The notes: generated by a model not told the origin, from the sequence alone. Numbered from the stretch's first letter, positions 553-18,830 are shown. The stretch is DNA of 20,678 nt from a virus (IMGVR_UViG_2925939204_000008), one strand, 5' to 3'. A program made the numbers and translations.

Positions 553-606
553 GAGAAATAACCCTGTAAAAATCCGGGATCATGCCATCTGAGCCGAATA
601 ACTGCA

Positions 607-632
607 TTTTCTAAAAGGTTGGTTTGGGAGAA
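607..632. other. pix/gix-like 26-bp invertase crossover site (one half well conserved, other half degenerate)
   Basis: Minus-strand reading TTCTCCCAAACC AA CCTTTTAGAAAA resembles the gix/hix pattern TTCnnnnAAACC..GGTTT..GA.AA; sits 55 bp upstream of the pin start, where the pin-proximal site is expected. Confidence 0.4.
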
Positions 633-971
633 GCGGCTAAAAGGAATGTAGGGACAGGGGCGAATCAGATACCTGATATGGGTAGCTTCACGCTTTCTGT
701 TTCAGGTACTGGATATCAAAAATTACCATCAGGTTTTATTCTTCAGTGGGGCTCAATCGGCGCACCAGGCATTGCACAGGATGTAGTAACCCATTTCCCG
801 ATTGCATTTCCAAACAGATGTCTGCGTGTTTTGGTCTCACAAGACTACACACCAGATAGCGGGGCTGTTGGTTATATTGCCTGTGCAGGTTTTAGTCCCG
901 ACCCGGTTAAATTTATATCCAGAGCCAGTACTCCTGGCCTCGGCGCTTCATTTTTAGCGTTAGGCTGTTAA
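624..971 (+). CDS. Tail fibre C-terminal (variable-region) fragment; reading frame opens inside the crossover site and has no canonical ATG
   Basis: 115-aa ORF starting with TTG inside the pix-like site and reading away from pin, as expected for the alternative variable tail-fibre segment of an invertible G/P-type region; Gly/Ser/Thr-rich composition. Confidence 0.4.
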
Positions 972-1155
972 TTTAGCTATATGGAGTGAAAAATGAATTA
1001 CATATATTCCGCGACTACAAACTCTTTCTATCCGCTGGAGATGAAAGAGGATTACCCCAGCTCGCGGACATCCTTCCCGGTGGGTTCATCAAACTCCAGT
1101 ACGGAGAGTGTCTCACCATGAGCGATAATCGGTTTCTTTAACTCAAGCTCTTTCA

Positions 1156-1512
1156 TTACTGGTAATCCCCTTCTTCACCGTGGAACTCAAGATCAACCGT
1201 GCCTTCTTCGGCATTATGGTTCGCTTCTCCGTGCAGCCAGGCGGACGACAATACATAGACCTGACCGTTCGCCAGCTCGGCAGTGATGGTCATCTCATCA
1301 GACGAGGTGATTTTGCTCACCGGAAAATTCTTCGGCACCTTGAAGGTCCCTTTGACATAAGGCGCACGGTGAGTTTCCTTGCGGTCCACTGAACCGTCCA
1401 GGCCGATGATGTCATCATTGACCGTCCTGTTCATGGGCACCTCAATGCCGCCGGTCAGCGATAGCTGCTGACCGTCAATTTTGAAATAACAGGTTCCCCC
1501 GATACGGGCCAT
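1156..1512 (-). CDS. Putative contractile-tail tube protein (Mu gpM-like)
   Basis: 118-aa ORF immediately downstream of the sheath-like gene with start/stop overlap at 1512; size and position fit a tube protein; not searched. Confidence 0.5.
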   Translation of the reverse strand: MARIGGTCYFKIDGQQLSLTGGIEVPMNRTVNDDIIGLDGSVDRKETHRAPYVKGTFKVPKNFPVSKITSSDEMTITAELANGQVYVLSSAWLHGEANHNAEEGTVDLEFHGEEGDYQ

Positions 1513-2651
1513 TATGCAGACTCCTCTGAATACTGAAGACGGAACTGGTTAACCACGGCAAAAACACGCAACTGGTTAACATAGTCAGGCGGGAACAGCG
1601 TGTTCAGGCGGTTCGGATCGCTGGCATCACGCTCAACAACCAGGTACTGCTTAAACAGTTCGTAGTTTTCCACGATCCCCGCACACTCAAGCTGACGGTA
1701 GGTTGCCAGCAGTTCCCCTTTGATTACCGCCGGGGTGACAATCGCCTGACCGGGACCAAAGCGGGTACCGTCGCTGGCAAGCTTGTGACGCCCGTACTTA
1801 CTGGTAATGACGGATTTCAGTTTGCGCAGTACATACGCACTGGTATGCAGCGTCTCGCTGTCGAGGTAGCTGTTATCCGCAACCCCGTAAGCATTTTTCC
1901 TGTACGTGGTGACATCACGCTGAATGCGCACCAGCGTGTTAACGGAGGCCGTGTCGTTGAACGGCAGACCGATATAATCAAACGGCTCATCCGCCATTGC
2001 AGCCACCGCGCCGGTGAGAACCGGAGCGCCCGTTCCGGCGGTCCCCGTCGCCACGGCAATCTGTACGCCCGCTGGCAGCACTTCACCCCCACCGAAGCCG
2101 TAGTAATTGAGGCTGACAGGAATTTCATTCCCGCAAAGCCCCTTATGACGCGCGGTCAGCGTGACAACACCAGCCGAAGATGAAGCTGTAAACGGCAGAG
2201 TCGGAACGGCATTGATGGCATCCTGGATACTGCTGGCAATCGTCGTGACGTTATCGCCGTTGGTCACCGGAGCCTGCACACGGGTACGTCCCACATAGAC
2301 ATTCACCGTGCCGCTTTCGGTTGCTTCCCCGGTCACCGTCAGCGTAACCGTTGCCGCCGCGCCTGTGGCTTCCGGAACGGCAATCACATACAGCTCGCCA
2401 AACGGGTCAGTCTGGCGATAAGCCTCGACCATACGCGCCAGCTGACTTCCCGCACCACAAATCTGGCGTGCATAGTCTGCCGACGGCATCAGCACCAGGC
2501 TGTTGGCAACAATCTCTGCACCGTTATTGGCATGACCAATCAGCAGCGATGCTCCGCTGTCCTGTGCAGTATTCGCCGCCGAGTTATCCATTTCCGCATA
2601 AAACAGCGGAACCAGCGTATTCGACGGAATGGTGTTAAAGCTTATCGTCAT
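1512..2651 (-). CDS. Putative contractile-tail sheath protein (Mu gpL-like)
   Basis: 379-aa ORF, Gly/Thr/Val-rich beta-type composition, tightly coupled to the 118-aa downstream gene; sheath-tube pairing inferred from order and size. Confidence 0.55.
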   Translation of the reverse strand: MTISFNTIPSNTLVPLFYAEMDNSAANTAQDSGASLLIGHANNGAEIVANSLVLMPSADYARQICGAGSQLARMVEAYRQTDPFGELYVIAVPEATGAAATVTLTVTGEATESGTVNVYVGRTRVQAPVTNGDNVTTIASSIQDAINAVPTLPFTASSSAGVVTLTARHKGLCGNEIPVSLNYYGFGGGEVLPAGVQIAVATGTAGTGAPVLTGAVAAMADEPFDYIGLPFNDTASVNTLVRIQRDVTTYRKNAYGVADNSYLDSETLHTSAYVLRKLKSVITSKYGRHKLASDGTRFGPGQAIVTPAVIKGELLATYRQLECAGIVENYELFKQYLVVERDASDPNRLNTLFPPDYVNQLRVFAVVNQFRLQYSEESA

Positions 2652-2805
2652 CGGTGTTCACCTTTTTATTCACGCGCCGGATATCACCCGCGGCTTCACG
2701 GCGCAGCCAGTAGTTGTTCTCGTCAACATTTCGCCCTTCGGCGGGCAAAAGGTCGCCGCGGGCAGGGTCAGGCACTGACCGCCCTTTAACAGGTTTCACA
2801 AACAT
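2635..2805 (-). CDS. Small conserved phage protein (56 aa) between terminase and sheath genes
   Basis: Not in the ORF track; ATG at 2805 lies 8 nt after the terminase stop and the ORF overlaps the sheath start by 17 nt; translation MFVKPVKGRSVPDPARGDLLPAEGRNVDENNYWLRREAAGDIRRVNKKVNTDDDKL. Confidence 0.4.
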   Translation of the reverse strand: MFVKPVKGRSVPDPARGDLLPAEGRNVDENNYWLRREAAGDIRRVNKKVNTDDDKL

Positions 2806-2813
2806 GATGATTC

Positions 2814-3944
2814 TCAGGAAGGAAGGGTTATTTCGGTGTGATGTTCGATATCGCCGTCAGGCCCGTTACCGGGATCGAGATAATCAACATCAATCGCCAG
2901 CGTTCGCAGTTCATCTAGACTGTTCAGGTCATCCTGCTGGCGGGTATCGTCTTCAGTCAGCTCGCTGATGACCGAAAAATCGAACTGATAAATCAGCTCA
3001 TGACGATTCAGATCCAGCAGCGTACCGCCGTCATAGGTAATCGGGTTACCGCACGCTTCCGGGTTAGCTTTTTCCAGCACCTGTGGGTCGGTCCAGTCGT
3101 CACCTTCGTCAACGGTATAGATGATCCCGAACAGTTCATCGTTGGGTACCGACCCGTTGAGCATCTCGATAACTTCCCGCCGCTTGTCGTAGCACGGCCC
3201 CTCAATGTTGTACCCGGCAGTAGTAATGGCCCACATCAGTGGCTGACGTCGCGCCCCCATCCCGGTAAGCATCGTGGTGTAAAGCGCGTCGGTGGCGTGC
3301 TCGTGATATTCATCCACCACCGCACAGTGGGGTGATGATCCATCACCGGGGTTACCGATCAGCGGTTCAAACCGCGCGCCATCCTCCGGACGGTTCATGT
3401 TTGAGGCGTTAACCTCAATCCCGAACGCTTCCGTCAGCATGGGTGTGCGTTTACACATCAGTCGCGCCGGGCGAAAGACTTCCCACGCCTGTTTCTCTGT
3501 CGTGGCACCGGAATACACTTCCGCGCCAAACTCGTTATCACAGGCAAAACAATACAGGGCGACACCGGCAGAGATTGCCGATTTGCCGTTCTTACGGGGA
3601 ATTTCGGTATACACCTCCCGGAAGCGGCGCAGCCGGATACCTTTATTGACCCAGCCAAACGCACAGCAGATCACAAAGAGCTGCCACGGCTCCAGCGTGA
3701 TGGGCATCCTCTTGAATGCCCACTCCCCCTTGGTGTGCGGCAACAGTTGAATAAATTTGGCGGCCCGTTCAGCCAGGTCCTTGTCGAAGCGGTAACGAAA
3801 CGACTTACTTTTTTCCGCCATCAGGTCATCAAGATGGCGCTGGCAGGCCTGAATCACAAACTGGCAGGCCACAATCTTTCCGCGCACGACATCACGGGCA
3901 TACTGATTGGCAGCATTTACGTTGGGGTAAGATTTCCGGCTCAT
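2814..3944 (-). CDS. Phage terminase large subunit, ATPase domain only (truncated; nuclease domain missing)
   Basis: Walker A-like PRKNGKS, Walker B-like [14 protein letters not shown] motif; 376 aa is too short for a full TerL and the C-terminal ~70 aa is an acidic low-complexity tail. Confidence 0.7.
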
Positions 3945-4406
3945 GACTCGATGATTTTCAGAAACGGGTTAGTGGCTTTCTTCTGCCCCGCCAGGCCAAT
4001 CAGACGCTGGCGGCTGCTGGGGTCGAGTCCGAGCATTGCCCCCGTGCTGCTCATCTCGGACTCCTGTTCTTTTTTGGCGGTCAGCTCCGGATTTTTGACC
4101 CTGCCGCCCATTGCACCGGTGATGGTGTTGCCCTGTATCAGGAAGAGACACAAAGACGCCATTTGCAGACTGCGCCACAGCGTCAGCAATGAAGTGAGTT
4201 CCACCTGCACGTTGCAAAATCATTGCCCATCCCAGCGGGAAAATCTGATCGCCATCGGCACGAAGGCGGTTAAATAATGCGTTCTCTGTTACATCCAGCC
4301 AGTCAGCAGCTTCAGCGTACCCCCCCGGCAACGCTGCGATAGTTTTTCTGACAGCTTTCACGTACCACTCAGGCTGTTTTTCTACTTTCCAGTGATGCTT
4401 ACCCAC
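3941..4406 (-). pseudogene. Frameshifted small DNA-binding gene upstream of terminase large subunit (terminase small subunit-like or CII-like)
   Basis: N-terminal part in ORF 3969..4406 (HTH-like GGYAEAADWLDVTENALFNRL) turns to low-complexity read-through; C-terminal part in the +1 frame (3941..4210) ends in an ATGA overlap with the terminase start; frames swap around 4110-4170. Confidence 0.45.
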
Positions 4407-4659
4407 GGTTCACCTCCTGTTCCTGTGGTTTAAACCCATTCTGGTTTTGGCTAGATTGAAAACGTGCCGGATAAAGAATCTGCATTTCGCTGACTTCACC
4501 CTTAAAAAAATTGGCTAAACGTTCTGCAAGCTCGATAGATGGAATCTGCTCCAGCCTCTCAATACGACTCAACGTCGCTGGATTGACTTGAACACCCGCA
4601 GCAACATGCTGCAAAGTGAAACCATGCGCCTTACGCACATTTCGTAATGGTGATTGCAT
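4399..4659 (-). CDS. Cro-like HTH (XRE family) DNA-binding protein
   Basis: 86-aa ORF with HTH (FTLQHVAAGVQVNPATLSRIE), divergent from the CI-like repressor across a 97-bp operator-containing intergenic region. Confidence 0.7.
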   Translation of the reverse strand: MQSPLRNVRKAHGFTLQHVAAGVQVNPATLSRIERLEQIPSIELAERLANFFKGEVSEMQILYPARFQSSQNQNGFKPQEQEVNRG

Positions 4660-4673
4660 ACGCCCTCCAAATA

Positions 4674-4736
4674 TTGCGCGTTATGCATGTTATTTCACGC
4701 AATTATTTTGCGCAAGTTGATTTGCTTATCACGCAA
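4674..4736. promoter_or_regulatory. Operator region of the cI-like/cro-like divergent pair (TTGCG..CGCAA palindromes)
   Basis: TTGCGCG-N15-CACGCAA (4674-4702), perfect palindrome TTGCGCAA (4708-4715), TTTGC-N7-CGCAA (4722-4736), all between the two divergent start codons. Confidence 0.45.
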
Positions 4737-4756
4737 TAAAGAAATGTAATAAACGC

Positions 4757-5449
4757 ATGAACATAGGAAACCGAGTCAGACAACTTCGCCAAGCGAAGAA
4801 CATGAAAATCGCCGATCTCGCTGAAGCGATAGGAGTAGATGCGGCGAACATCTCGCGCTTAGAAACGGGTAAGCAAAAACAATTTACCGAACAAACACTG
4901 AGTAATATTGCCAAGAGCTTAGGTGTTGATATTGCTGATCTCTTTACCTCTGCCCACAAAAGTAATACTGTATATAAAAACAGTAATAATGAGGATGTTG
5001 CGCAGGTGAAGGATGTGTTCCGTATTGAAATGCTGGATATCAGTGCCAGTGCGGGAAATGGCCTTATCCAGGGCGGTGATGTCATTGATGTGATTCATGC
5101 CATCGAATACAGAACTGATAATGCTGTATCAATGTTCGGCGGACGACCAGCCAATCACATCAAAGTTATCAACGTTCGTGGGGACAGTATGTGTCCAACC
5201 ATTGAGCCAGGAGATCTCATCTTCGTTGATGTCAGCATCAATCAGTTTGATGGTGATGGTATATATGTCTTTGGTTTTGATGACAAAATATACGTTAAAA
5301 GACTTCAAATGATTCCTGACAAACTGCTGGTGATTTCTGATAACCAGATTTACCGTGAATGGGGAATTACTAGCGAAAACGAACACCGATTCATGGTCTT
5401 TGGAAAGGTCTTAATCAGTCAGTCGCAAACCCTTAAGAGACATAATTAA
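4757..5449 (+). CDS. CI-like phage repressor, N-terminal HTH plus C-terminal LexA-like S24 peptidase domain
   Basis: 230 aa; N-terminal HTH (MKIADLAEAIGVDAANISRLETG); C-terminal S24 signature GDSM (Ser) and downstream KRL (Lys). Confidence 0.85.
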   Translation: MNIGNRVRQLRQAKNMKIADLAEAIGVDAANISRLETGKQKQFTEQTLSNIAKSLGVDIADLFTSAHKSNTVYKNSNNEDVAQVKDVFRIEMLDISASAGNGLIQGGDVIDVIHAIEYRTDNAVSMFGGRPANHIKVINVRGDSMCPTIEPGDLIFVDVSINQFDGDGIYVFGFDDKIYVKRLQMIPDKLLVISDNQIYREWGITSENEHRFMVFGKVLISQSQTLKRHN

Positions 5450-5468
5450 CCTCAATATCCCATCCATC

Positions 5469-5491
5469 GGCCACCGAAAGGTGGCTTTTTA
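5469..5491 (+). terminator. Rho-independent terminator after the repressor gene
   Basis: GC stem GCCACC / GGTGGC with GAAA loop followed by TTTTTA. Confidence 0.7.
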
Positions 5492-5502
5492 TTACCTATA
5501 AA

Positions 5503-5540
5503 TTTGCATATATAGCAAATATAACTTGCATATCTCGCAA
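5503..5540. promoter_or_regulatory. Two operator-like palindromes (TTTGC-N7-GCAAA and TTGC-N7-GCAA) upstream of the xis-int operon
   Basis: TTTGCATATATAGCAAA (5503-5519) and TTGCATATCTCGCAA (5526-5540) share the TTGC/GCAA half-sites seen in the cI-cro intergenic region. Confidence 0.4.
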
Positions 5541-5845
5541 TTTAATTTTATCTTTTGTTCCAGACCAACTACAGGATTACAACAAAATCTGGTTGCAACA
5601 CGGTGCATGTGTCGTAAGCAGTCAGTAAATGTCAAAAACGAACAGGCAGGACGCCCACGAAGTAGCCGCCTGGGGCATATGAAGTCCAGGATGATTCGTT
5701 AGCAACAAAAAAGCGCCCTACAGGACGCTTAGCTCTTTAACAATCTGGTCCCCATCAACAAGTAACTGATAACTTGAGGAGACCTTGAAAACGTCAATAT
5801 CACTCACTGGGCAGTAATGCCAAAAGCACCGGAGGCTGGAGCATA

Positions 5846-6151
5846 ATGACCACTTTTACCGACAAAGAACTGATTAAAGAAATTAAAGAGCGTATCAGCA
5901 GCCTTGACGTGCGAGACGATATTGAGCGCCGTGCTTATGAAATCGCACTCCTATCTCTGGAAGTAGAACCAGATGAACGCGAAGCTTATGAATTATTCAT
6001 GGAAAAGCGTTTCGGTGACTTAGTAGATCGTCGGAGAGCAAAAAACGGCGATAACGAATACATGGCATGGGATATGACTCTCGGTTGGATCGTCTGGCAG
6101 CAACGAGCAGGTATCCATTTTTCAACAATGTCACAACAAGAGGTGAAATAA
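5846..6151 (+). CDS. Hypothetical protein (101 aa), translationally coupled to xis
   Basis: ORF with acidic helical composition; stop TAA overlaps the xis ATG (TAATG at 6149-6153). Confidence 0.5.
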   Translation: MTTFTDKELIKEIKERISSLDVRDDIERRAYEIALLSLEVEPDEREAYELFMEKRFGDLVDRRRAKNGDNEYMAWDMTLGWIVWQQRAGIHFSTMSQQEVK

Positions 6152-6501
6152 TGGAGCCATACAGCCTCACACTCGATGAGGCCTGTCATTTTCTCAAGAT
6201 ATCCAGACCGACTGCCATTAACTGGATACGCACAGGGCGTCTTCAGGCAACACGCAAAGATCCCACTAAGAATAAATCTCCTTACCTCACAACACGACAA
6301 GCCTGCATTGCGGCTCTTCAGTCTCCGCTGCATACTGTCCAGGTGAGCGCGGGTGATGGCATAACAGAGGAAAGAAAATGTCACTCTTCCGCAGAGGTGA
6401 AATATGGTACGCCAGTTTCACATTGCCGAACGGTAAAAGATTTAAACAGTCTCTTGGAACAAAGGACAAAAGGCAGGCGACAGAACTCCATGACAAGCTA
6501 A
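6151..6501 (+). CDS. xis: Excisionase / AlpA-like DNA-binding protein
   Basis: [33 protein letters not shown] is a typical excisionase HTH; start chosen at the ATG at 6151; reading frame stays open to 6501, overlapping the int start by 124 nt, so the true end is uncertain. Confidence 0.65.
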
Positions 6502-7541
6502 AGGCTGAAGCATGGCGGGTCAGCAAACTTGGTGAAATACCTGATATAACGTTCGAGGAAGCGTGTGTCAGGTGGCTTGAAGAGAAAGCACATAAAAAAT
6601 CGCTGGACGATGACAAAAGCCGGATCGGATTCTGGCTTCAACATTTCGCAGGAATGCAACTAAGAGACATTACTGAATCAAAAATTTATTCAGCAATGCA
6701 GAAAATGACGAACCGGCGTCATGAGGAAAACTGGAAACTCAGGGCAGAAGCATGCAGAAAAAAAGGGAAACCTGTTCCAGAATACACGCCAAAACCAGCG
6801 TCCGTTGCAACGAAGGCTACGCATCTTTCATTTATAAAGGCCCTACTAAGAGCCGCAGAGCGTGAATGGAAAATGCTGGATAAGGCACCAATTATTAAAG
6901 TGCCTCAACCAAAGAATAAACGGATCCGCTGGCTGGAGCCCCATGAAGCACAAAGGCTGATTGATGAATGTCCGGAGCCATTAAAGTCTGTTGTTGAATT
7001 TGCACTGGCAACAGGCTTAAGACGCTCGAACATCATCAACCTTGAATGGCAACAAATAGATATGCAGCGCCGGGTGGCATGGATAAACCCGGAAGAGAGT
7101 AAATCAAACCGCGCAATTGGCGTTGCGCTGAATGATACTGCATGTCGCGTATTGAAAAAACAAATCGGGAATCATCACCGTTGGGTATTTGTGTACAAGG
7201 AAAGCTGTACCAAACCAGACGGAACGAAAGCGCCAACAGTAAGGAAGATGCGGTATGACGCAAACACAGCCTGGAAAGCGGCGCTGAGACGGGCTGGTAT
7301 TGATGATTTCAGATTTCACGACTTGAGACACACCTGGGCAAGTTGGCTGGTTCAAGCCGGAGTCCCGTTGTCAGTGTTACAGGAAATGGGAGGCTGGGAG
7401 TCTATCGAAATGGTTCGTCGATATGCTCACCTTGCACCTAATCACCTTACCGAACACGCACGGCAAATAGACTCGATCCTGAACCCATCGGTCCCAAATT
7501 TGTCCCAGTCAAAAAATAAGGAAGGTACTAATGATGTGTAA
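6378..7541 (+). CDS. int: Tyrosine recombinase, phage integrase (e14 IntE-like)
   Basis: 387 aa; N-terminus [14 protein letters not shown]; catalytic-type motifs HDLRHTWAS and VRRYAHL; good RBS GAGGAAAG. Confidence 0.9.
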
Positions 7542-7713
7542 CTTATTGATTTTAATGGTGCCGATAATAGGAGTGTAACACGCGATAAATCTTGTGTTCG
7601 GGTCTTCTTCTACGACCTTCGCAACTACCTGATTTAACGATTTTTACGCACACTGATAATCTGGCATTCATCATGCACATGATAAACGCCCCTAAACTTT
7701 AACGGGGTGGAAA

Positions 7714-8937
7714 ATGAAATACAAGCCGGATCAATACATCATATCTGATAGTTACGGAGTTTATTACGTCAGGATTTCAATTCCTGTATGGCTTCGTAAT
7801 GCATTTGGTGGAAGAAAAACTCTCGTCCGTAGTCTGAACACTTCCGATCTTCGTGTGGCTCGTAGGAAGCGTGATGTTATAGCCGACGAATTTCACCACA
7901 TCAGGCAAATTGCAGAGCCGCCAAAACCGGACAGCTTGCAGGACACGATCAGCTTTTTAAAGAGCGTGGCTAAGTACGCGAAAGCTGCCCCGAAAGCATC
8001 AGCTCCGATTATCTACCAATGCCCCTCTCTGAATAAGATGTTAGAGATTTACCTCACGCATAACGCTGATCGCCTGAAAATGGGAACATTAAGCAAGACC
8101 AGAAAAGCCGTTGAACTGTTCCTGAATTACCTGCGAAAGAAGGATGTTGAACTAAACGATATCAACCGTACCACCGTTACAGGCTGGCTTGATCATCTCC
8201 GAGAGACAAAGGCAGTCCAGACAGTGGCTAACTACCTATCAGCAATGGCAAACATTCTCGATCTTGCCTCTTCCCGATACCAGGACGCCCCACCGCTGGA
8301 AACTAACGTGTTCAGGGGGCATAAACTCAACACAGCGCAGAGCCGCCAGAGTTACGAGGCATTCACGGACGAAGAAATTACGAAGCTCATTAGCACGTTT
8401 AACAAGTTAGGAGAGGACGAATTAAGGGATGTGAGCGCCATCGCCGCTTATAGCGGAATGCGCATCAATGAAATAGCCAGTTTGAAATCTGACAATATCC
8501 GTGAAGTTGAGGGGGTGTTATGTTTCGAGGTGACGGAGGGTAAGACACGCAATGCGGCGCGGTTGGTTCCACTTCATAGTGCGATTAGAAAAATGGTTCT
8601 GGAACGCTGCCAGAAGCCGCACAACGGCTTTTTATTCTACCGTGCAAGTGTGACCAAGAGACAGGACGGCAAGCGCTCCTCATGGCACGTAAACCGCTTT
8701 GGACGGCTTAAACGCGATATTCTCCCAGGGCAGGAAAACAAGGTGTTTCACTCGTACCGCCATGCAGTGATCAGTAAGCTAAACGCCGCCGGAGTGGATG
8801 AATCTCGTATTGCCTTGCTCGCGGGTCACTCATTTGGAGAAACTGAGTCTTTCAAGACGTATTCGAAGAGTGTTCCTGAGCGTATTATGAAGGAGTTAGC
8901 GGGGTATATTGAATTAATAAATTACAACGTCCAGTAA
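7714..8937 (+). CDS. int: Tyrosine recombinase, integrase of genomic-island type
   Basis: 407 aa; C-terminal catalytic region with HSYRHAVIS and a downstream Tyr; long N-terminal arm/core-binding region. Confidence 0.85.
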   Translation: MKYKPDQYIISDSYGVYYVRISIPVWLRNAFGGRKTLVRSLNTSDLRVARRKRDVIADEFHHIRQIAEPPKPDSLQDTISFLKSVAKYAKAAPKASAPIIYQCPSLNKMLEIYLTHNADRLKMGTLSKTRKAVELFLNYLRKKDVELNDINRTTVTGWLDHLRETKAVQTVANYLSAMANILDLASSRYQDAPPLETNVFRGHKLNTAQSRQSYEAFTDEEITKLISTFNKLGEDELRDVSAIAAYSGMRINEIASLKSDNIREVEGVLCFEVTEGKTRNAARLVPLHSAIRKMVLERCQKPHNGFLFYRASVTKRQDGKRSSWHVNRFGRLKRDILPGQENKVFHSYRHAVISKLNAAGVDESRIALLAGHSFGETESFKTYSKSVPERIMKELAGYIELINYNVQ

Positions 8938-8941
8938 TTAA

Positions 8942-8961
8942 GGGGGGATTATACATCCCCC
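8942..8961. terminator. Hairpin between convergent int2 and the 92-aa gene (possible bidirectional terminator)
   Basis: GGGGGGAT-TATAC-ATCCCCC stem-loop; no strong U-tract on either side. Confidence 0.35.
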
Positions 8962-8967
8962 GATAAC

Positions 8968-9246
8968 TCATTTATTCCATTCGTTTTGAATTTGATTCTC
9001 AACTGCTGGCAAAAGGTTATACCAGGAAGCAGAGTTATTCTTAGCATCAACAACAATCAACTTATCATCGCTATCCATCGCTGCCCGAACTTTTCTGGCA
9101 GCCTCTTCAACCGAATAATTCGAATTTACGTACCAGTTCGACTCGGTAACTTTTGCCCAGTTGCCCAAGGCCTTGATAGCATCATGCACAGCAGCATAAT
9201 CTTTGGTTTTGATCAAGTCATAGGTTACAAACAAGTTGTTAGCCAT
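8968..9246 (-). CDS. Hypothetical small protein (92 aa)
   Basis: ORF at the distal end of the minus-strand operon; N-terminal beta-strand-like LFVTYDL. Confidence 0.5.
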   Translation of the reverse strand: MANNLFVTYDLIKTKDYAAVHDAIKALGNWAKVTESNWYVNSNYSVEEAARKVRAAMDSDDKLIVVDAKNNSASWYNLLPAVENQIQNEWNK

Positions 9247-9304
9247 TTAATTCTCTCCAGACATTCAAATGAATAAGCACCGCTATGGGCACTTTGAGAT
9301 ATTT

Positions 9305-9433
9305 TTATTTCTTAGCTTTCTTGGTAGGGATTTTGATAGTTTCAGTTATCGTAGTATCAGGATGTCGTTTAGCTTCAATGGGCTTAACAAACTGACCAGT
9401 TATCGCAGAACGAACTACTGTTTTCTTAGCCAT
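9305..9433 (-). CDS. Small basic protein (42 aa), not in the ORF track
   Basis: ATG at 9433 preceded by GAGGTG with 5-nt spacing; translation MAKKTVVRSAITGQFVKPIEAKRHPDTTITETIKIPTKKAKK. Confidence 0.3.
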   Translation of the reverse strand: MAKKTVVRSAITGQFVKPIEAKRHPDTTITETIKIPTKKAKK

Positions 9434-9468
9434 AAAAACACCTCATCTTGGAGATAAAGAGTGAACTG

Positions 9469-9488
9469 CTTACCCTTTTAAGGGTAAG
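9469..9488. terminator. Perfect hairpin downstream of the 616-aa gene
   Basis: CTTACCC-TTTTAA-GGGTAAG inverted repeat; no U-tract, so terminator function is uncertain. Confidence 0.3.
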
Positions 9489-9584
9489 GGACAAACGAAG
9501 CGGCGTCAAAGAAAAACACCACATATACACATCCTTTACAAACCGAGCGCAATATGTGGTATTCCCATGTGATTTACATCACAA

Positions 9585-11435
9585 TCATCCCCCTGTGGAT
9601 GACTGACCGCTCAAGGCTGATAGCGTAAGGCTACGAGTGAATGAATCCGCACTCGCTTTTGCAGACCAGTCGATATAGTCAGACAATCGAGAAACATCAC
9701 TTTGCAGAGTCAATCCCACTTGTGGATTCACTTGTAGGTTGAATATCGGGTTCAACGTGTACGCTGGCGCGTTGCTGCTGTTGAGCGACATTGCCGAAGC
9801 ACGGAGATTTTCCCCTGAAAGGCTGTATTGATTAGTCGCTGTCCCTGCTTGCTGATTACCAACGCCCAACCAATCCATGATAGCCGGAGCCACTGAACGG
9901 GTATCAAACCCCGTTTTATCCTGAATCCAATCGGCCGTAGCATTCGCAGAGCCACCCACAGCACCATCATAAAGATTTTGAACAGCAGGTTTCTTAGTAT
10001 CGCTAAACCATTCAGGGTGTTGTTGGCGGAGAGTACTGTTAAGATCAGACACTACGCTGGAGATTTCTCCAACAAAGCCCGTCACCTGTTTAGCCAGGTC
10101 GCCTAATCCCTCTCCGAGCATACCAGCAGATTCTGTTATCACTTTGGTGTTCTTCACCAGGTCGTCACCACCATCAGCAAAGCCTTTCATAAAGCCTGTA
10201 AACATGCTGTTATCAACGCCATTCATGAGATTACCCATCGCTACACTCAGATCACCATATGCAAGAGTTTGCTTGATCTGCTCCTCGTTAAGAGTTTGAC
10301 CACTATCGACAAGCTGTTTCAGCGTCTTGTTATATTCTGCACCGTTGTTCATGAACATATCGGTGTAGTGCATCAGGTCATCACCTAAACTCTCTATAAG
10401 CGTACCAATCTGAGCCTGTGACATACCACGGCGTTGCCCTTCATTGGTAACTGCTTGAAGTAGATCAGCAGGACGATCCTGGAAGGATTTAATCTGTTCT
10501 TTGCCCCATCCAAACTTATTCATAATAGAAGTGATACCACCATCGCCGCCTTTCCATTCGCCATTTTTAAACTGGCTATCGTTCAGGGTCATAGCGATAC
10601 GTTCACGTACATCTTTGAAATTGTCCGTCACTTTATCGACATTGGCGCTATCAACTCCGTGTTGCTGCCCCCATGCCACCATCGTTTTAACTACGTTAGG
10701 ATTAGTCTTAACAAGTTCCGATTTTCTAACCAAGTCAAGATTTTCATTCCCTTTGTCAACAATTCGCTGCCCCACTCCGAGGGAGCCAGCCGTTAACGCA
10801 AGGCTTCCTAATACCCCACCACCGACGATAGGAGCATTCCCGCCCTTCTGAGCCTTTAGCTTAGTGGCTGCTGCGGCATACTGGGTACGCTGTGCCTGTG
10901 TCACTTTCGCTTGTTGTGCGGCTTCTCTGCGTAACAGGGTTACACGCTCGCGTATAAGCGCATTCATACGTTGAGAGCTAATATTCCCCTTCGCAAACTC
11001 TTCGCTTTGCTGATGAATATAACGTAACGCTTCATACTGAGATTTAGGATCAAGCCCGTATTTACCTTTAATTCCTGACACTTGTAGCCCTGCATGGCGA
11101 AGTTTAAGCTCGGCTGTCTCTTGGCGCTTCTGTAGCTGCTGCTTCGCTTTCAGATTGGCCTTTTCATCCCTGGCTTTCTGCTTCTCCGCCGCACGTTGGG
11201 CTTTCATTTCCTTCGTATCACGAGGCTTATCATTAAAACGTGCATCATCGGCTTGTTGACGGGCTTTCTGTCTGCGCTGCTTCAGATCCTGGAAGCGAAT
11301 CTTGGGATCGGCTATTTTCTGGAAGTGCTTTTGAAGGTTATCCGCTGCGGCCTTAGCCTCTGCAATACTCCCTTTGTCAACGGTGAAAGTTACGGTGTTG
11401 ACGATCTTACTTGTATTAATCTCAAGCATCGCCAC
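9585..11435 (-). CDS. Large structural-type protein, tape-measure-like (coiled-coil N-terminus, Gly-rich hydrophobic segments)
   Basis: 616 aa; K/R/Q/E-rich coiled-coil N-terminus then APIVGGGVLGSLALTAGSLGVG-type segments; GTG at 11435 or ATG at 11429 as start; function inferred from composition only. Confidence 0.4.
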   Translation of the reverse strand: MAMLEINTSKIVNTVTFTVDKGSIAEAKAAADNLQKHFQKIADPKIRFQDLKQRRQKARQQADDARFNDKPRDTKEMKAQRAAEKQKARDEKANLKAKQQLQKRQETAELKLRHAGLQVSGIKGKYGLDPKSQYEALRYIHQQSEEFAKGNISSQRMNALIRERVTLLRREAAQQAKVTQAQRTQYAAAATKLKAQKGGNAPIVGGGVLGSLALTAGSLGVGQRIVDKGNENLDLVRKSELVKTNPNVVKTMVAWGQQHGVDSANVDKVTDNFKDVRERIAMTLNDSQFKNGEWKGGDGGITSIMNKFGWGKEQIKSFQDRPADLLQAVTNEGQRRGMSQAQIGTLIESLGDDLMHYTDMFMNNGAEYNKTLKQLVDSGQTLNEEQIKQTLAYGDLSVAMGNLMNGVDNSMFTGFMKGFADGGDDLVKNTKVITESAGMLGEGLGDLAKQVTGFVGEISSVVSDLNSTLRQQHPEWFSDTKKPAVQNLYDGAVGGSANATADWIQDKTGFDTRSVAPAIMDWLGVGNQQAGTATNQYSLSGENLRASAMSLNSSNAPAYTLNPIFNLQVNPQVGLTLQSDVSRLSDYIDWSAKASADSFTRSLTLSALSGQSSTGG

Positions 11436-11619
11436 CGCCTTTTTTACTCACCAGATAATTAAGTGCATCTGATACACTACGCCCACGATGTAATAACTGA
11501 CGTAGATGACCGTGATCTATTTCAAGCACACGACACACTCCCGCCAGATTTAATAACTCTTCTGCTGTTTCAGCATTTACGGCGAGGTGAAGCCCCGCGC
11601 TTTTTACAATCACTTGCAT
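11422..11619 (-). CDS. Hypothetical small protein (65 aa)
   Basis: ATG with upstream GAGGAAAG; overlaps the start of the 616-aa gene by 14 nt. Confidence 0.45.
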   Translation of the reverse strand: MQVIVKSAGLHLAVNAETAEELLNLAGVCRVLEIDHGHLRQLLHRGRSVSDALNYLVSKKGGGDA

Positions 11620-11738
11620 TTATCTTTCCTCATTCTGGAAATAAAAAAGGGCGGGAACACTGGGGAGATGTTCCCAACGTTCACACGCCCTATTCAATAG
11701 CCTGATTATTTCCAGCGGGTCAGGCTCCCGCTTGCTCA

Positions 11739-12770
11739 TTAAGCAGTGATGGTGATCTTCACCTGCATACCTAACGCATGGTTCACTGGTAATGCGCTGT
11801 TTTCGTGCATAACGTGGTAAGCATCGCCGCGCTCGCTCAGGTAGCCCCAAGAGTAGTATTCAGCAGGTGCAGCATCGATCAGCGCAAAGTTACCAGAGGC
11901 AGCGCCGTAGATGTTCTGATAAGCATTTGTGCCTTTACTGAACACCGGAACCGCCACCATGTCAGCATCATCTGGCATCTGTGCAAGGATCAGCGGATCT
12001 GTCACTTTAACAATGTCGATAGGCGCACCAGGTAGGCTAAACGTACTAACACCAGGGAGAAGCTCGTGACGCTGGTAGAATAGGTTACGGTCGTCATATG
12101 GCGCTACATACTGGAACGCCTTAGACATACTGTCAGAGAAGCGAATCTGGCTAAATGCAGCAGGTTTAGCGAATACGATCACTCGTTCAATCTGTCCAGC
12201 CAATCCACCTGCGGCAGCCTGAACTTTGTCTAAGATCGCATCAAAATCCTGTGCCGCTGTCGCTGTGCTCACGCTGGCTGTCATTGGCACCACACCGAAC
12301 AGTTCAGCATAAGAGATCAGTAGGTCATCAGTTGCAGGCGTATAAACTTCACCTTTGAACAGAGCACGGGCCAGGTAAGACTCACGGGTACGCAGATAAG
12401 CAATCTTATGTTTGCCAGTGTATTCGGTGTACAGGTCGGTAACGGTTTGCTCGTAGTCCGTTCCCTGCACTCTGCGGCCTTGTACGTCTACAGGTTTAAA
12501 CTCATCTTCCCTTGCAAACCAAGGAATCTCGATAAGGTATTCTTTGCCATTCTGACGCGCGGTAGTGTCGTGGTTTGATGAATAACGGCTCTGCGGGGTG
12601 TTAAACAGGCTGTAGTTATCATCCAGAAGCTGTGTCACCACCACTTTCGGATTCTGAACACCTACCCCGTCGAATAGGTCGAGGGCATTCATAAGATAGT
12701 TACGTTCCGGCAGAGCCTGGAAGATTGGCGCTAAATCGACCATCTCACGCCCAATTGCGATTTTACTCAT
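11739..12770 (-). CDS. Putative major capsid protein (lambda gpE-like size and position)
   Basis: 343 aa (lambda gpE is 341 aa), directly downstream of a ~119-aa gene as in the lambda D-E pair; assignment from size, order and composition, not from confirmed similarity. Confidence 0.45.
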   Translation of the reverse strand: MSKIAIGREMVDLAPIFQALPERNYLMNALDLFDGVGVQNPKVVVTQLLDDNYSLFNTPQSRYSSNHDTTARQNGKEYLIEIPWFAREDEFKPVDVQGRRVQGTDYEQTVTDLYTEYTGKHKIAYLRTRESYLARALFKGEVYTPATDDLLISYAELFGVVPMTASVSTATAAQDFDAILDKVQAAAGGLAGQIERVIVFAKPAAFSQIRFSDSMSKAFQYVAPYDDRNLFYQRHELLPGVSTFSLPGAPIDIVKVTDPLILAQMPDDADMVAVPVFSKGTNAYQNIYGAASGNFALIDAAPAEYYSWGYLSERGDAYHVMHENSALPVNHALGMQVKITITA

Positions 12771-13358: not shown

Positions 13359-13433
13359 TGTGTTGTTCCTTCGCGTTATAACTGCGTTTATCCTTCCATT
13401 GATAACGGAAGTGTTACATGCAGATTGTTAAAA

Positions 13434-13451
13434 AGGGGCGATTAAGCCCCT
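13434..13451 (-). terminator. Intrinsic terminator on the minus strand between the regulatory and structural operons
   Basis: Minus-strand RNA AGGGGC-UUAAUC-GCCCCU followed by UUUU. Confidence 0.45.
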
Positions 13452-14024
13452 GGAGAATATGCCCTTGTTAGAAAGCATTCTGTTAAAATCATTTTCGTTT
13501 CGGAGGATTATGATGTTAAAGAATGGCTTCTTGAAAAAATGAAGGGCGCAACTGTTACGAATAACAGAAGTAGGATCGCCCGTCATTGCTCCCACTTCAA
13601 AACAGAAGCCCTTCTGTCATGGCGAGAAGTGGGAATGGAATCTCAATATCACCACTGGAATAGTAATAAGAGATTGCCAGCCTGAACGTAACTACCGCTG
13701 ACGGCGTTTATTCAGTCTGACTACATTCATCCTAACGGAATGAATGAGCAAAGAGCGAATGCCCTTTCTGAAAAAGTCGGAGATGCGCGGTGATTGCGAT
13801 GCAATACCAACACAACGAGATATTACATCCCGCGCATTCCTTCGGAACAAACAAGACAAAGAACCAACACTTTCAGAAATAGCATTCAGAGGGAGAGAAT
13901 GCCGCTATGGGAACGGCATTCTCAAGGAGTGCGTATTGACATACGAGGGTGAAGTGATTCGAATACTTACCCTATAACTCATTATGACACATATAGCACA
14001 TAATGTCAAGACATTTAGTAACTT

Positions 14025-14843: not shown

Positions 14844-15305
14844 TTATTTAGTCGTAAGTGTAATGTCGCATCCTTTACCGCGACCAGGTTTGATTAACGT
14901 AGTAGTTAGATAATCATTGCGGCGAAGCTTGCGAATCGCACTGGATACAGTTGCCACACTTATCCCCAACACTATCGCTATTGACTCCTGTTTCACATTT
15001 GTTAATGATGGCAGTGATTCGAGGTGCATTAATACCAGACGTTCCGAAGGAGACAGATTCTTATCGTGAAGATGTGGGGATGTCATTTTACATTCTATCT
15101 CTTTCGGTGGCTTCATCGCTGCATTGAATAGCGTAACAAGAGCATTAGCGTAACTTGATTCACCTCGCTCAGCGTAAACATCTACAAGTTCTTGCGCTTG
15201 TTCGAATGCAACACCTCTTTCAACTTCTGGATTTAATAAACTGGCAAGATGGATGATGTTAAGATCACGTTCGTTGTATTGTTTGGGTATAACCGTTTTC
15301 AGCAT
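14844..15305 (-). CDS. Winged-helix (MarR-like) DNA-binding protein
   Basis: C-terminal wHTH-like LSPSERLVLMHLESLPSLTNVKQESIAIVLGISVATVSSAIRKL. Confidence 0.5.
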   Translation of the reverse strand: MLKTVIPKQYNERDLNIIHLASLLNPEVERGVAFEQAQELVDVYAERGESSYANALVTLFNAAMKPPKEIECKMTSPHLHDKNLSPSERLVLMHLESLPSLTNVKQESIAIVLGISVATVSSAIRKLRRNDYLTTTLIKPGRGKGCDITLTTK

Positions 15306-16039
15306 AAATGTTCTATTTCCTCGTAGATTGGTTTAAGTTTTGGATTCTTCTCTGTGTCCAGGTATCCGTTAATAAGTAGCCATCTGATTTTCGGATGTTG
15401 TGAAACTGGTAGATTCTTTTCAGGATTCTCCCATTCATCCCGATAACCCTCAAGAAAGTTTAAATTAACTGGCTCTATCTTAATATCTTTAGCTGGAATG
15501 GAGGCGGGTTTCTTCGTAGGCATTTTCTTTGGCTTCTCCGGCTTCGGATCTGCTTTGGCCTCTTCTGGCACTGACTGCTGTTTTTCTTCCTCTGGCGCTA
15601 CGTCTTCTTTAGCTTTGCCAAACACGGGATGTTTCAGACAATCTACCCATTCCGGCGCGGAATCACGTTCCATCGCATTACGATCACGTTCAAAGGTGAA
15701 GTTTTGCGGCGTGAGTGGCGTTATAGTCCATTGGTTAGAGCGCTTTGGCTTATTACTGGCGATCAGTCCGATTTTCTTCAACTTTGCAACAATACGTGTT
15801 GCCGTAGCCGAGCTGACACCAATACTTGCACCAAGTTGATCAATGTCATCGTAATAAGTACCGCCCAACTCTATCGCAAAGCGATAATAACGATGGCGCA
15901 TTCTGACGTAAAACTGCTTATCAGCAGGAGACAGGGACTCTGTTACGCCTGTTTTAAGATTGGTGATCCTGGTGCATTCGTTAAATGCGTCTTCGGTGTT
16001 GGTGAAACTAAAAGCCTTACTGTTTATAATGTCAGTCAT
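15299..16039 (-). CDS. DNA-binding protein with lambda O-like architecture (N-terminal wHTH, K/P/E-rich linker, C-terminal domain); possible replication initiator
   Basis: SPADKQFYVRMRHRYYRFAIELGG...GVSSATATRIVAKLKKIGLI resembles the replication protein O N-domain by recall; long low-complexity linker. Confidence 0.4.
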   Translation of the reverse strand: MTDIINSKAFSFTNTEDAFNECTRITNLKTGVTESLSPADKQFYVRMRHRYYRFAIELGGTYYDDIDQLGASIGVSSATATRIVAKLKKIGLIASNKPKRSNQWTITPLTPQNFTFERDRNAMERDSAPEWVDCLKHPVFGKAKEDVAPEEEKQQSVPEEAKADPKPEKPKKMPTKKPASIPAKDIKIEPVNLNFLEGYRDEWENPEKNLPVSQHPKIRWLLINGYLDTEKNPKLKPIYEEIEHLC

Positions 16040-16497: not shown

Positions 16498-16592
16498 GTT
16501 GCCTGATAGTGCGGTGTAAGTTGGATTGTTTGCGTTAGGCTGGATGCCTGAGATGAGGACGGGATGAATGCTTTCATTACCCTACATCATTT

Positions 16593-16672
16593 ACTTTAAC
16601 ATGAAATGATTTAAGTGTCAACACTTATTTAAATCCCTTTCAAATTATAGCGCATTTCCACGTTGTGATCAA
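16593..16672 (-). promoter_or_regulatory. Two tandem sigma70-like promoters directed into the minus-strand regulatory operon
   Basis: TTGATC (16667-16672) 17 nt TATAAT (16644-16649), and TTGACA (16616-16621) 17 nt TAAAGT (16593-16598), read on the minus strand. Confidence 0.4.
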
Positions 16673-17223
16673 CTCATTCATGTCATCATAAAACGCGGTC
16701 TATCGCTTTCTAACAGGTTTGAAAGCCTGAGAGTTGCAATCCCCTCCCTATCCTCTCAAATTCGCTCTCAGCGCGTCTGGGGCGTTCCGTTTGCGTTACC
16801 GCCGCCCTCTGGCACTTACTCCCGAAACCAATAGCACAACTACTGAGGGATAACGTTAGTTATCAGGATAGTAGGTGATGGTATTGGATTGAGGCTGGAT
16901 GAACTGGAGCCATCAGCGACCAGTGAATCCTTAGCCGTGGGCTAACTTTGCATGGATGAATGCGGAGCATGGAAGACAGGCAGAAGTTATGCTGAAAGAC
17001 ATTGCGCACACGGCGCATAGCTTCTGTGCCTCGTTTCACGAGGGCGAAGCCCTGGCACAATCACAGACAGATGCGCTACGCTGCGTCGTGAGCGGCTGAC
17101 CGAGTAGCCCCCAAAGGCGAATCAGGTCACTTGCCAGGCGATACGCGCCAGCAAAGCGAATCTTTAACAAGATCTTCTAAAAGCTCTCTTTTAGAGATCG
17201 CTTTTAGAATCTCTTTGTATAGA

Positions 17224-17305
17224 ACATCAATTTGATGTGTAGTTTGCCGATCCATACATCAATTTGATGCGTATCCCATGCATCTATACATCATTTTGAT
17301 GTATA
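17224..17305. repeat. Three 18-bp direct repeats at exactly 32-bp spacing, each with an internal palindrome ACATCAA(t)TTGATGT
   Basis: ACATCAATTTGATGTGTA (17224-17241), ACATCAATTTGATGCGTA (17256-17273), ACATCATTTTGATGTATA (17288-17305). Confidence 0.8.
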
Positions 17306-18061
17306 ACGCCCCCAACTAACTCTGATTCATCCATGCAACAACACTAAGAGTAACGAGAGGTTATTCCTATCAAAACAACACGATAATCATAGCTAAGCCT
17401 ATCTTAAATGACAGGTAAAGATTGCCGTTGTTACATGGGTAAAGTTGCCATAGTCAGCAAGATAGTAACCATCACTCACTTTGCGTAAAGCCTTGCGCCA
17501 TGCGGCTCACAGCGATCATTGTCCACAATGAGGAGTTTCATGACAGGTGCAATGTGCTGAACGAGTTTTCTAAAATGAAACGATGTTTCTTTTTCATGCC
17601 AAAATCCACCAATTGATTAGCATTCTAATCATTTCATTACACACTCAGTTTCAAGTGCATAAACTCCGCATAATTTGTGCATACAGGCAGGTTAGCCCCG
17701 CCCTCGCCTAACAACCTTACATTTATCAGATTTAAATCAATGAGATAGACAATAACCACACACAAGCATTGGTAGTGTGATGTTCCGCTGTTGCCGCTGT
17801 TCTTCGTGCAGAGTTGAGGATTTGGCAATGTTCAAACACATGTTTATAAATGCCAACATCATGATTTTGTTCAAGATATTTAGAGGAGAAGAAATTTTCG
17901 ATCTGGAGGCGGCCCTGGAGGTCGTTAAGCACTGGACGCAATCGCGCCATTTACCACACACAAGACAGTTCGATTTTTGATCATTTATATTGCAACTTAC
18001 TGAAATTGATCATATTGTTTGTTTCGTTGAGTTTAGATGTGTGTCTTTATGGGAGGGTAAA

Positions 18062-18622
18062 TTGAACAGAGCAGTAGTGTTAGACGAACAGCAAGCCAAA
18101 GCGATCAGGGAGTGGCTAAACGCTCATAACAAGAGCCTGATAGCTGACGTTACGTTAATGATGCAAGCCGCTGTACTGCGTGTGGGGGATGCCGTAGCGT
18201 TACGCTTCGACGAAGTGATCAACGGTGAGATTGACATAGAAGAACAGAAGACAGGGAAGCGTAAAGCCCTCACTCTCCCTGCTCCAGTGGTGCAGATGAT
18301 TGCTCGTCGCCGTGCTGAGTATCCGCATGATGTGCATGTGTTCAGAAGCCAGCGTAACCGATCAATGAACAAGCAAGCGCCTGTACGACGCGAAGAAGTG
18401 AGCAAGCAGATCGCAGAGGCCGCTAAAGCTATCGGTATTCATGGCACTGTATCAGCTCACAGCTTCCGCAAAGCTGGCGGGAATGCCATCTACAAGCGTT
18501 CAGCAAACAACATCGCTTTAGCTATGACCGTGCTTAATCACAGCAACATCACTGACACCAGGCGCTATCTGGATTTAGACAAGCAAGCCGTTAGCCGTGT
18601 GATCAATGAGATGGACTTATAA
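18062..18622 (+). CDS. Small tyrosine recombinase, catalytic domain only (FimB/FimE-sized or truncated integrase)
   Basis: ORF open from 17990; likely start TTG at 18062 after GGGAGGG, or GTG at 18041; motifs ALRFDEV, HSFRKAGG and TRRYLDL fit the R...H-x-x-R...Y catalytic pattern. Confidence 0.65.
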   Translation: MNRAVVLDEQQAKAIREWLNAHNKSLIADVTLMMQAAVLRVGDAVALRFDEVINGEIDIEEQKTGKRKALTLPAPVVQMIARRRAEYPHDVHVFRSQRNRSMNKQAPVRREEVSKQIAEAAKAIGIHGTVSAHSFRKAGGNAIYKRSANNIALAMTVLNHSNITDTRRYLDLDKQAVSRVINEMDL

Positions 18623-18632
18623 GGAGATACGC

Positions 18633-18830
18633 ATGAAACGCTTGCTTGTGCTGACGCTGACAGTAATGCCAGTCCTGGCGAATGCCGGACAGATAACCCT
18701 GATTCTCAGTGACGAACAGGAGACAGACAACGCGAAGATTTGCGTTTATTCCAACGCCAACTTTACGGAGACAGTGACGCTCAGGCCGTCGCAGCAATGC
18801 CGCTACACAATGACCTTTGAAGAGGAGTAA
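18633..18830 (+). CDS. Small secreted or periplasmic protein with signal peptide (65-aa precursor)
   Basis: ATG at 18633 with AAGGAGA 5 nt upstream and 10 nt after the recombinase stop; MKRLLVLTLTVMPVLANA signal-like N-terminus; two Cys in the mature part. Confidence 0.5.
   Translation: MKRLLVLTLTVMPVLANAGQITLILSDEQETDNAKICVYSNANFTETVTLRPSQQCRYTMTFEEE

Follow-up and report, generated by a model that had tools for sequence, protein, structure and literature searches.

The stretch of DNA analysed here, IMGVR_UViG_2925939204_000008 (20,678 nucleotides, called the window throughout), is part of an Escherichia coli chromosome, 100% identical to that of strain AR_0128 beside proA and tRNA-Thr. We found that positions 18062-18622 of the window encode what the sequence predicts to be a functional, free-standing tyrosine recombinase built of the catalytic domain alone, and that this gene is the first of a rightward unit, with a gene for a small secreted-type protein close behind it. 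It is also the second recombinase gene of an element of ~13.7 kb, which is integrated at tRNA-Thr and has a full-length integrase of its own. The small recombinase occupies a conserved slot near the replication origin of this element, in which divergent enzymes replace one another, and we tentatively propose that it processes multimers of the excised, replicating form of the element. Coordinates of the features are collected in Table 1.

The recombinase gene and its product

The maximal open reading frame (ORF) at this locus extends from 17990 to 18622 and would yield a protein of 210 amino acids (aa) initiated at a TTG codon. The real start is almost certainly another TTG, at 18062, preceded by a Shine-Dalgarno (SD) sequence, since the corresponding RefSeq coding sequence (CDS; WP_032937054.1) is identical and every homologue begins there. 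In the alignment of relatives, the upstream TTG coincides with the beginning of a conserved -35 hexamer, TTGCAA. The annotation of the product in RefSeq is generic.

By its sequence, the protein is a member of the tyrosine recombinase superfamily (PF00589). The domain comprises residues 6-175 and covers positions 2-171 of the 172 positions of the profile (E=3.5e-16); thus, no residues are left for a core-binding or an arm-binding domain. Residues R40, K63, H133, R136, H160 and Y169 are unchanged in an alignment of 16 homologous sequences, down to 26% identity. The AlphaFold2 (AF2) model consists of a single domain, with a predicted local distance difference test (pLDDT) score of 91.9, and it matches only catalytic domains, best of all those of XerH, XerA, IntI4, lambda Int and Cre; against the isolated catalytic core of lambda Int, the template modelling (TM) score was 0.73-0.75. 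A first-pass annotation, made from the sequence alone, had described a tyrosine recombinase of ~187 aa devoid of the N-terminal DNA-binding arm and similar to FimB and FimE in its size; the length of 186 aa, the end-to-end match to PF00589 and the single-domain model bear out both of these statements.

The family and the selection acting on it

The ratio of nonsynonymous to synonymous substitution rates (dN/dS) among six close relatives of the gene (90-96% nucleotide identity) was 0.02-0.09, which indicates strong purifying selection. Two groups of relatives, designated classes A and B below, have exactly 186 aa in each member examined, at identities ranging from 43 to 99%. The wider family, as revealed by a profile search of the full library, comprises 422 clusters at E<=1e-30, and the best 150 of them were nearly all 180-200 aa long and matched end to end from residue 1. 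Relatives from this family are also carried by 323 plasmid records.

Only the small size of the protein speaks for the alternative, raised in the first-pass annotation, that the gene is a C-terminal remnant of a longer, decayed integrase. This reading is refuted by the purifying selection, by the length fixed at 186 aa and by the existence of hundreds of clusters of the same size matched from their first residue, as well as by the lack of any trace of the missing part upstream: when the N-terminal halves of XerD and of two full integrases were compared with positions 16498-18100 by tblastn, the best match had only E=5.7. What does precede the gene directly is a conserved SD sequence and a conserved promoter. 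We consider the probability of the gene being such a remnant to be negligible.

A conserved slot with exchangeable occupants

The slot lies between the non-coding region which contains the origin and the variable cargo genes, and it is filled by three divergent classes of tyrosine recombinases. Class A is represented by the enzyme from the window, while members of class B (186 aa) and class C (~202-205 aa) are, respectively, 43% and ~25% identical to it; the three classes are mutually only 25-43% identical. When metagenome contigs were retrieved with the palindrome of the upstream non-coding block B1 alone, 54 were obtained, 50 of them with enough sequence to be informative, and in each of these 50 a small recombinase gene was located 545-640 bp downstream of B1 on the same strand (class A in 15 contigs, class B in 15 and class C in 20). 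The similarity accompanying the recombinase begins near position 17475 and stops exactly at the recombinase stop codon, and between otherwise near-identical elements the genes located beyond this point differ.

In a related island at leuX (L143; E. coli EcPF7, 2995-12692), the equivalent slot is occupied by a serine resolvase of 191 aa (PF00239 and HTH_7). This island encodes an integrase of the same DUF6538 type and has 87 bp of the origin-side flank in common with our element. It also carries Kiwa (kwaAB) and the Eco29kI restriction-modification system, and its serine resolvase gene is preceded by a GATC-rich stretch and a frameshifted small ORF with a signal peptide.

The small protein encoded downstream

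The stop codon of the recombinase gene (TAA, 18620-18622) is separated by exactly 10 nt from the ATG codon of the small ORF at 18633, as stated in the first-pass annotation, and the signal peptide proposed there is conserved. The N-terminus of the small protein, MKRLLVLTLTVMPVLANA followed by GQ, is built like a signal peptide of the Sec type, and this segment is kept among the homologues together with C37 and C56, both of which are invariant in the alignment. There are 216 homologous clusters in Enterobacteriaceae, and in all eight contexts inspected the gene was placed directly 3' of a small recombinase gene. The 65-aa family is more conserved than the recombinase and follows all three recombinase classes in many loci; in other loci its place is taken either by convergent genes or by different tiny ORFs with signal peptides, which overlap the recombinase stop codon (L002, L005). 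Thus, the pairing of a recombinase gene with a small signal-peptide ORF, claimed previously for this single locus, recurs across the element family. Of the translational coupling suggested for the two genes, only the close spacing is borne out; the small ORF has its own SD sequence, AAGGAG at 18621-18626, which overlaps the recombinase stop codon. In a PADLOC search, neither the recombinase nor the small protein nor any of the cargo genes was matched to a defence system.

The non-coding region upstream of the recombinase gene

The gene-free stretch ahead of the recombinase gene is longer and less biased in composition than was supposed earlier: instead of ~700 bp of AT-rich DNA it comprises ~1565 bp (16498-18061) and is only mildly AT-rich, with a GC content of 0.40 for 17300-18061 versus 0.51 for genes. 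Close to its right end, TTGCAA and TA(A/T)T(G/A)T, spaced by 17 nt, are kept in nine class-A loci, and class B has a similar arrangement, TTGTAA..TGATCATAAT; we infer that in the window TTGCAA-N17-TATTGT would serve as the promoter of the recombinase operon. Two copies of TTGATCAT bracket the -35 element and abut the -10 element, and both are kept in the alignment of relatives. These are among the direct repeats pointed out in the first-pass annotation; the presence of copies at 17977 and 18006 is confirmed, but four occurrences in the window, with 1.38 expected, are not significant as a count, and the meaning of the two copies is therefore drawn from their conservation and from their bracketing of the promoter. 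The motif (A)TGATCA(A/T) is likewise present upstream of the class C gene and in the leuX island.

Farther upstream, direct repeats were found which are specific to the individual classes. The pair of CCACACACAAG sequences is characteristic of class A and is lacking in the other two classes. A different pair, ATGTGAGAT, is present in class B at -346 and -80, and two class C loci (L048 and L050) contain TCAATCAGT at -376 and -250, which is missing from L142, a locus also placed in class C. The array of GCATA-type repeats of class A has a related counterpart, TGCATAAACCGTGCATAG, at -260 in class B. Block B1, on the other hand, is common to all recombinase classes and was located by nhmmer 580-672 bp upstream of the recombinase gene, always on the same strand. 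It holds a 19-bp sequence, AGCC-N11-GGCT (17489-17507), and the palindrome CAGCGATCATTGT-CC-ACAATG (17510-17530); no consensus RNA fold was obtained for this block with RNAalifold. Two peculiarities of these adjacent sequences, which we term 'flip-flop', may be recorded. The centre of TCATTGT-CC-ACAATGA reads CC in about half of the loci and GG in the remaining ones; CG and GC never occur there, even between loci whose flanks are identical. In five loci, the 19-bp sequence is replaced by its exact reverse complement.

Table 1. Features of the recombinase locus and of its host element, with positions counted from the first nucleotide of the window
Feature	Position	Strand	Basis
Left attachment repeat ATGGTGCCGATAATAGGAGT, 20 bp	7555..7574	.	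exact direct repeat found in L001
Full-length integrase of the element, 407 aa; DUF6538, SAM-like and catalytic domains	7714..8937	+	domain matches
Replication-type genes: 246-aa DUF6945/winged helix-turn-helix (wHTH) protein, 153-aa HTH_36 protein	14844..16039	-	Pfam and PHROG matches to replication initiators
Three palindromic iterons ACATCAATTTGATGT, 32-bp spacing; replication module	17224..17305	.	co-variation with Rep
Block B1, universally conserved, non-coding	17462..17570	+	nhmmer, all recombinase classes
Dyad AATTGATTAG-CATT-CTAATCATTT	17611..17634	.	9/11 arm matches; kept in class A, class C and some of class B
Three GCATA-type repeats, ~11-bp spacing (GTGCATAAACTCCGCATAATTTGTGCATA)	17655..17683	+	invariant core in nine class-A loci
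Class-A direct repeat CCACACACAAG, distal copy	17756..17766	+	at -305 in all six close class-A loci
Class-A direct repeat CCACACACAAG, proximal copy, 25 nt upstream of -35	17954..17964	+	at -107 in all six close class-A loci
Two TTGATCAT copies (17977-17984, 18006-18013), GATC (Dam) at 17979 and 18008	17977..18013	.	alignment of relatives
Predicted recombinase-operon promoter: -35 TTGCAA (17990-17995), 17-nt spacer, -10 TATTGT (18013-18018)	17990..18018	+	conservation and consensus
SD sequence GGAGG, 5 nt ahead of the TTG start	18052..18056	+	sequence; AGGAGGG kept in close relatives
Small tyrosine recombinase CDS, 186 aa, catalytic domain only, TTG start	18062..18622	+	PF00589, RefSeq CDS, dN/dS, AF2
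65-aa secreted-type small protein; signal peptide ~residues 1-18 (ANA/GQ), two conserved Cys	18633..18830	+	phrog_4641, E=7e-15

The short palindromes noticed earlier in this region do include the repeats at 17224-17305, but these follow the replication protein and not the recombinase. Indeed, one relative (L017) has the same iterons and a 90%-identical Rep, yet its recombinase is only 43% identical, and the iterons were rejected as candidate recombinase sites because they co-vary with Rep. Their copy number is three in the window versus four in E. coli MS6192 and MS6193, owing to a 32-bp insertion (L008, 10725-10850). A perfect 14-nt inverted repeat, TTGCATGGATGAAT, at 16948-16961 and 17325-17338 encloses 363 bp including the iterons; by a rough estimate, ~0.04 such pairs would be expected by chance in the region of 4.4 kb. 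Another feature kept in close relatives is a G-rich imperfect dyad at 17690-17712 (minus strand, GTTAGGCGAGGGCGGGGCTAACC), which we presume to resemble the cohesive ends of P2 and lambda, and which may serve as a lead to a packaging site.

Searches of Rfam gave nothing at gathering thresholds in the region, the sole match, to a miRNA (E ~0.1), being due to chance. Of the small ORFs present upstream, one encodes 21 aa on the minus strand (MKLLIVDNDRCEPHGARLYAK) and the others 63-75 aa; even close relatives do not share their reading frames, and a three-base periodicity is not evident. We regard them, without certainty, as non-coding.

The question of a phase-variation switch

It was proposed in the first-pass annotation that the locus may be a phase-variation switch. 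In a switch similar to fimS, the recombinase would invert an adjacent promoter segment and in this way control the small protein or other neighbours. The size and the domain content of the enzyme, which resemble those of FimB and FimE, would agree with such a role, as would the alignment of its profile with that of FimE, obtained end to end by hhalign with a probability of 97.7%. The window does contain one perfect inverted repeat, the 14-nt pair mentioned above; it was rejected as a switch boundary, being lineage-specific (absent from relatives) and never seen inverted, and it brackets the Rep iterons. No inverted repeat of at least 7 nt was conserved in position among nine class-A loci, and none was common to the members of any class within -700 to +600; the best inverted repeats of the individual loci were short and inconsistently placed. 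A reverse-strand BLAST comparison of 22 loci over -2300 to +1400 revealed no minus-strand similarity. All 17 E. coli genomes which contain the full non-coding block were collinear, as were the eight with a near-identical locus, and order and strand were unchanged in the 50 informative metagenome contigs. Between the recombinase gene and the small ORF, which follows it, there is no invertible element, and the FimB/FimE models did not recognise the recombinase at E<=0.01. The idea of a local switch is thus largely refuted, and we find it very unlikely.

The situation is different for distant members of the family (27-30% identity to the recombinase from the window), some of which are enclosed by inverted repeats of 32-33 nt, and this makes an invertase-like activity plausible for the wider family. 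In two such loci (L039 and L040), repeats of 33 nt surround the recombinase gene. In a third one (L139, 7793-8877), a homologue of 195 aa and 27% identity is enclosed by inverted repeats of 32 nt, with csrA and a flagellin gene immediately downstream. Each of these repeats is a 12-4-12 dyad (ATGCAACAGTTT-AGAC-AAACTGTTGCAT), and an outward promoter-like sequence is found at one end; from this arrangement, the locus looks like a flagellar phase-variation element with the recombinase inside the switch.

The host element

The partner of the 20-bp repeat at the left end of the element (Table 1) was found in the 3' end of tRNA-Thr, ~580 bp past the end of the window. This pair of direct repeats delimits an element of ~13.7 kb, from 7555 to ~600 bp past the window end, of which the small enzyme is the second recombinase. 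Its genes are, from left to right, those for the 407-aa integrase, a 616-aa protein similar to TolA and tape-measure proteins, and a lambda-E-type major capsid protein with small ORFs, followed by the helix-turn-helix (HTH) replication-type proteins, a gene-free region of 1.56 kb, the small recombinase, the 65-aa protein and variable genes. The same order is found at several tRNA sites in Leclercia, Enterobacter, Citrobacter, Kluyvera, Buttiauxella and other genera. The capsid operon is separated from the next genes by another gene-free gap, of ~650 bp (13359-14024), and relatives have a gap of about the same length.

Phage relatives of the capsid protein are distant (identity of 27% at most), and the DNA of the locus gave no match in phage and plasmid collections; consequently, neither a helper phage nor a shared cos site can be named. 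Neither portal nor terminase was detected in the element by hidden Markov model (HMM) scans, which covered most but not all of the ORFs. The element looks unlike P4-like, PICI, cfPICI and PLE satellites.

The part of the window ahead of the element (1-7541) is occupied by a degraded prophage array. It contains a Pin/Gin-type serine invertase gene (1-552), tail-fibre fragments, tail sheath and tube genes, truncated terminase genes, cI-like regulators and a second integrase gene (6378-7541), and it suggests that one and the same tRNA site is occupied in tandem. In Citrobacter sp. NCU1 (L013, 1-20227), a second integrase gene and a set of genes including a tape-measure-like one follow the cargo of the first element, and two elements of this family appear to be arranged there in tandem.

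Relation to known recombinases

Nearly all that is known of tyrosine recombinases without any domain but the catalytic one comes from the FimB and FimE invertases. These enzymes of the E. coli fim switch have ~190-200 aa and the same catalytic residues as the recombinase from the window, and like it they consist of the catalytic domain alone. By the models of the FimB/FimE, Xer and integron-integrase families themselves, however, our enzyme is outside all three. NF007370 and NF007371 of NCBIfam, with cut-offs of 221-222 bits, give 450-458 bits with FimB and FimE, whereas they do not match our recombinase; a BLASTP comparison with FimB gave E=5.3. Moreover, FimB and FimE adjoin fimbrial genes and act on an invertible segment, while the recombinase of the window belongs to a mobile element, lies by a replication origin and has neither flanking inverted repeats nor orientation polymorphism.

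Enzymes of the Xer type (XerA, XerC/D, XerH) provide the best matches to the catalytic domain in both sequence and structure, but they are two-domain proteins. The recombinase from the window, which has no N-terminal core-binding domain, matches their models only from position ~95 on, with 27-42 bits against cut-offs of 220-335, and no dif-like 11-6-11 site specific to its gene was identified. The model of integron integrases, TIGR02249, gave 20 bits against a cut-off of 265, and no attC-like repeated sites were found downstream of the gene. The arm- and core-binding domains of phage and integrative and conjugative element (ICE) integrases are absent from this protein, in contrast to the integrase encoded at 7714-8937 of the same element, which has them together with the 20-bp att repeat. 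Small serine resolvases (PF00239 and HTH_7) are alike in position only, as judged from the leuX island, their fold and chemistry being unrelated. Counterparts of the same length are the genes of ~190 aa named 'integrase' in temperate phages and plasmids of streptococci, clostridia and Bacillus. They belong to the same family (26-31% identity) and are also placed at the junction between the early or replication module and the next one, although the hosts and the elements are different; no published function was found for them.

Possible role of the recombinase

The explanation of the function of the small recombinase which we favour, albeit with low confidence, involves the excised form of the element. 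The large integrase would excise the element, which would then replicate as a circle from the iteron origin, and the small recombinase would act on this circle at a site in the conserved region of ~600 bp upstream of its gene, where it would turn multimers into monomers or bring about in some other way the degree of multimerisation on which maintenance or packaging depends. The class-specific direct repeats near the promoter could be binding or autoregulatory sites of the recombinase, and the GATC sites in the promoter might tie its expression to replication. Such a role is suggested by the fixed slot by the origin, the interchangeability of the recombinases including a resolvase, the class-specific repeats and the presence of a separate integrase. 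Multimer resolution is a standard role for a recombinase on a replicating circle, and the occurrence of family relatives on plasmids is consistent with it. As a working analogy we propose P1 Cre-loxP, F ResD-rfsF and Tn4430 TnpI-IRS, in which the gene is likewise located beside the replicon origin, with repeats just upstream; the P1 cre promoter carries GATC sites as well. On the other hand, Cre, ResD and TnpI have core-binding domains and defined sites, whereas our recombinase is catalytic-only, and the evidence for a resolution role is positional.

Several observations weigh against resolution of multimers, and we hold this proposal only tentatively. No recombination site was identified for the recombinase. 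The best dyads (B1 and B2) are common to classes of only 25-43% identity, which would not be expected of a class-specific core site, while the repeats which are class-specific are direct and 126-266 bp apart, unlike a dyad of the lox or dif type. The co-variation of repeats with class is broken in one hybrid locus (L015), and the parallel with the serine resolvase comes from a single type of island. The recombinase gene forms one unit with that of a secreted protein of the 'moron-like' type, which makes its expression seem likely in the lysogen and not only during replication. Some distant relatives, moreover, look like invertases. Finally, literature searches found no experiment or paper on the recombinase family, no characterised member of this ~190-aa family, no paper on its domains or on the host element, and nothing of relevance on small recombinases of phages.

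The suggestion of invertase activity leads to another reading, in which the recombinase acts in trans on targets located elsewhere, such as switches of the host, the genome of a helper phage or a different mobile element. Its clearly retained catalytic residues, the existence of family members with the anatomy of invertases and the location of the gene in one unit with a secreted protein of lysogen type would all be compatible with this. Action in trans is known for FimB-like recombinases encoded on islands. The same was reported for RecV of Clostridioides difficile (PMC5903667). For our enzyme, however, no target can be named, its similarity to FimB is not significant, the class-specific repeats adjoin the gene itself and the strict position by the origin region suggests a role in cis, and we find action in trans unlikely. 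The very same repeats, which bracket the region just ahead of the promoter with the proximal copy 25 nt from the -35 element, would suit a DNA-binding regulator of its own promoter and of the cargo operon, with recombination being secondary or absent; relatives from streptococcal phages are in fact found in a regulatory position, between the late activator and packaging genes. Invariance of the six catalytic residues down to 26% identity, together with purifying selection, would be hard to explain without catalysis, which renders a mainly regulatory role improbable in our estimation.

The abrupt end of similarity at the recombinase stop codon, where different downstream genes begin, and the extension of the variable cargo up to the att site might indicate an enzyme of cargo exchange, resembling an integron integrase, or one of second-site integration, acting at the boundary of the variable region. 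The spaces between cargo genes, however, revealed neither attC-like nor repeated sites, the score is far below the NCBIfam cut-offs for integron integrases, and a complete integrase with att repeats to match is already present in the element; we regard this reading as quite improbable. A more speculative extension would combine parts of these ideas. The slot could be a swappable specificity module in a family of undescribed, capsid-carrying, tRNA-integrating elements of Enterobacteriaceae similar to satellites, whose enzyme either sets the multimeric state (for example, by forming or resolving multimers required for packaging by a helper phage) or exchanges the cargo which starts right at its stop codon, and block B1 with its two 'flip-flop' hairpin loops could be part of its substrate; we give this version little credence.

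Significance

Taken alone, the gene is unremarkable; worthier of further study are the conserved slot, the large family with no characterised member and the host element, which is apparently undescribed. The locus is a member of a distinct and very large family of ~190-aa recombinases common in temperate phages and plasmids, and the compact element, with its ordinary integrase and a strictly placed small recombinase, offers a clean genetic system for establishing the role of such enzymes. If multimer control or cargo exchange does not take place, the locus would represent an ordinary accessory recombinase gene; if the small recombinase does control multimers or exchange cargo in an element similar to phage satellites, it would be a new component of satellite biology.

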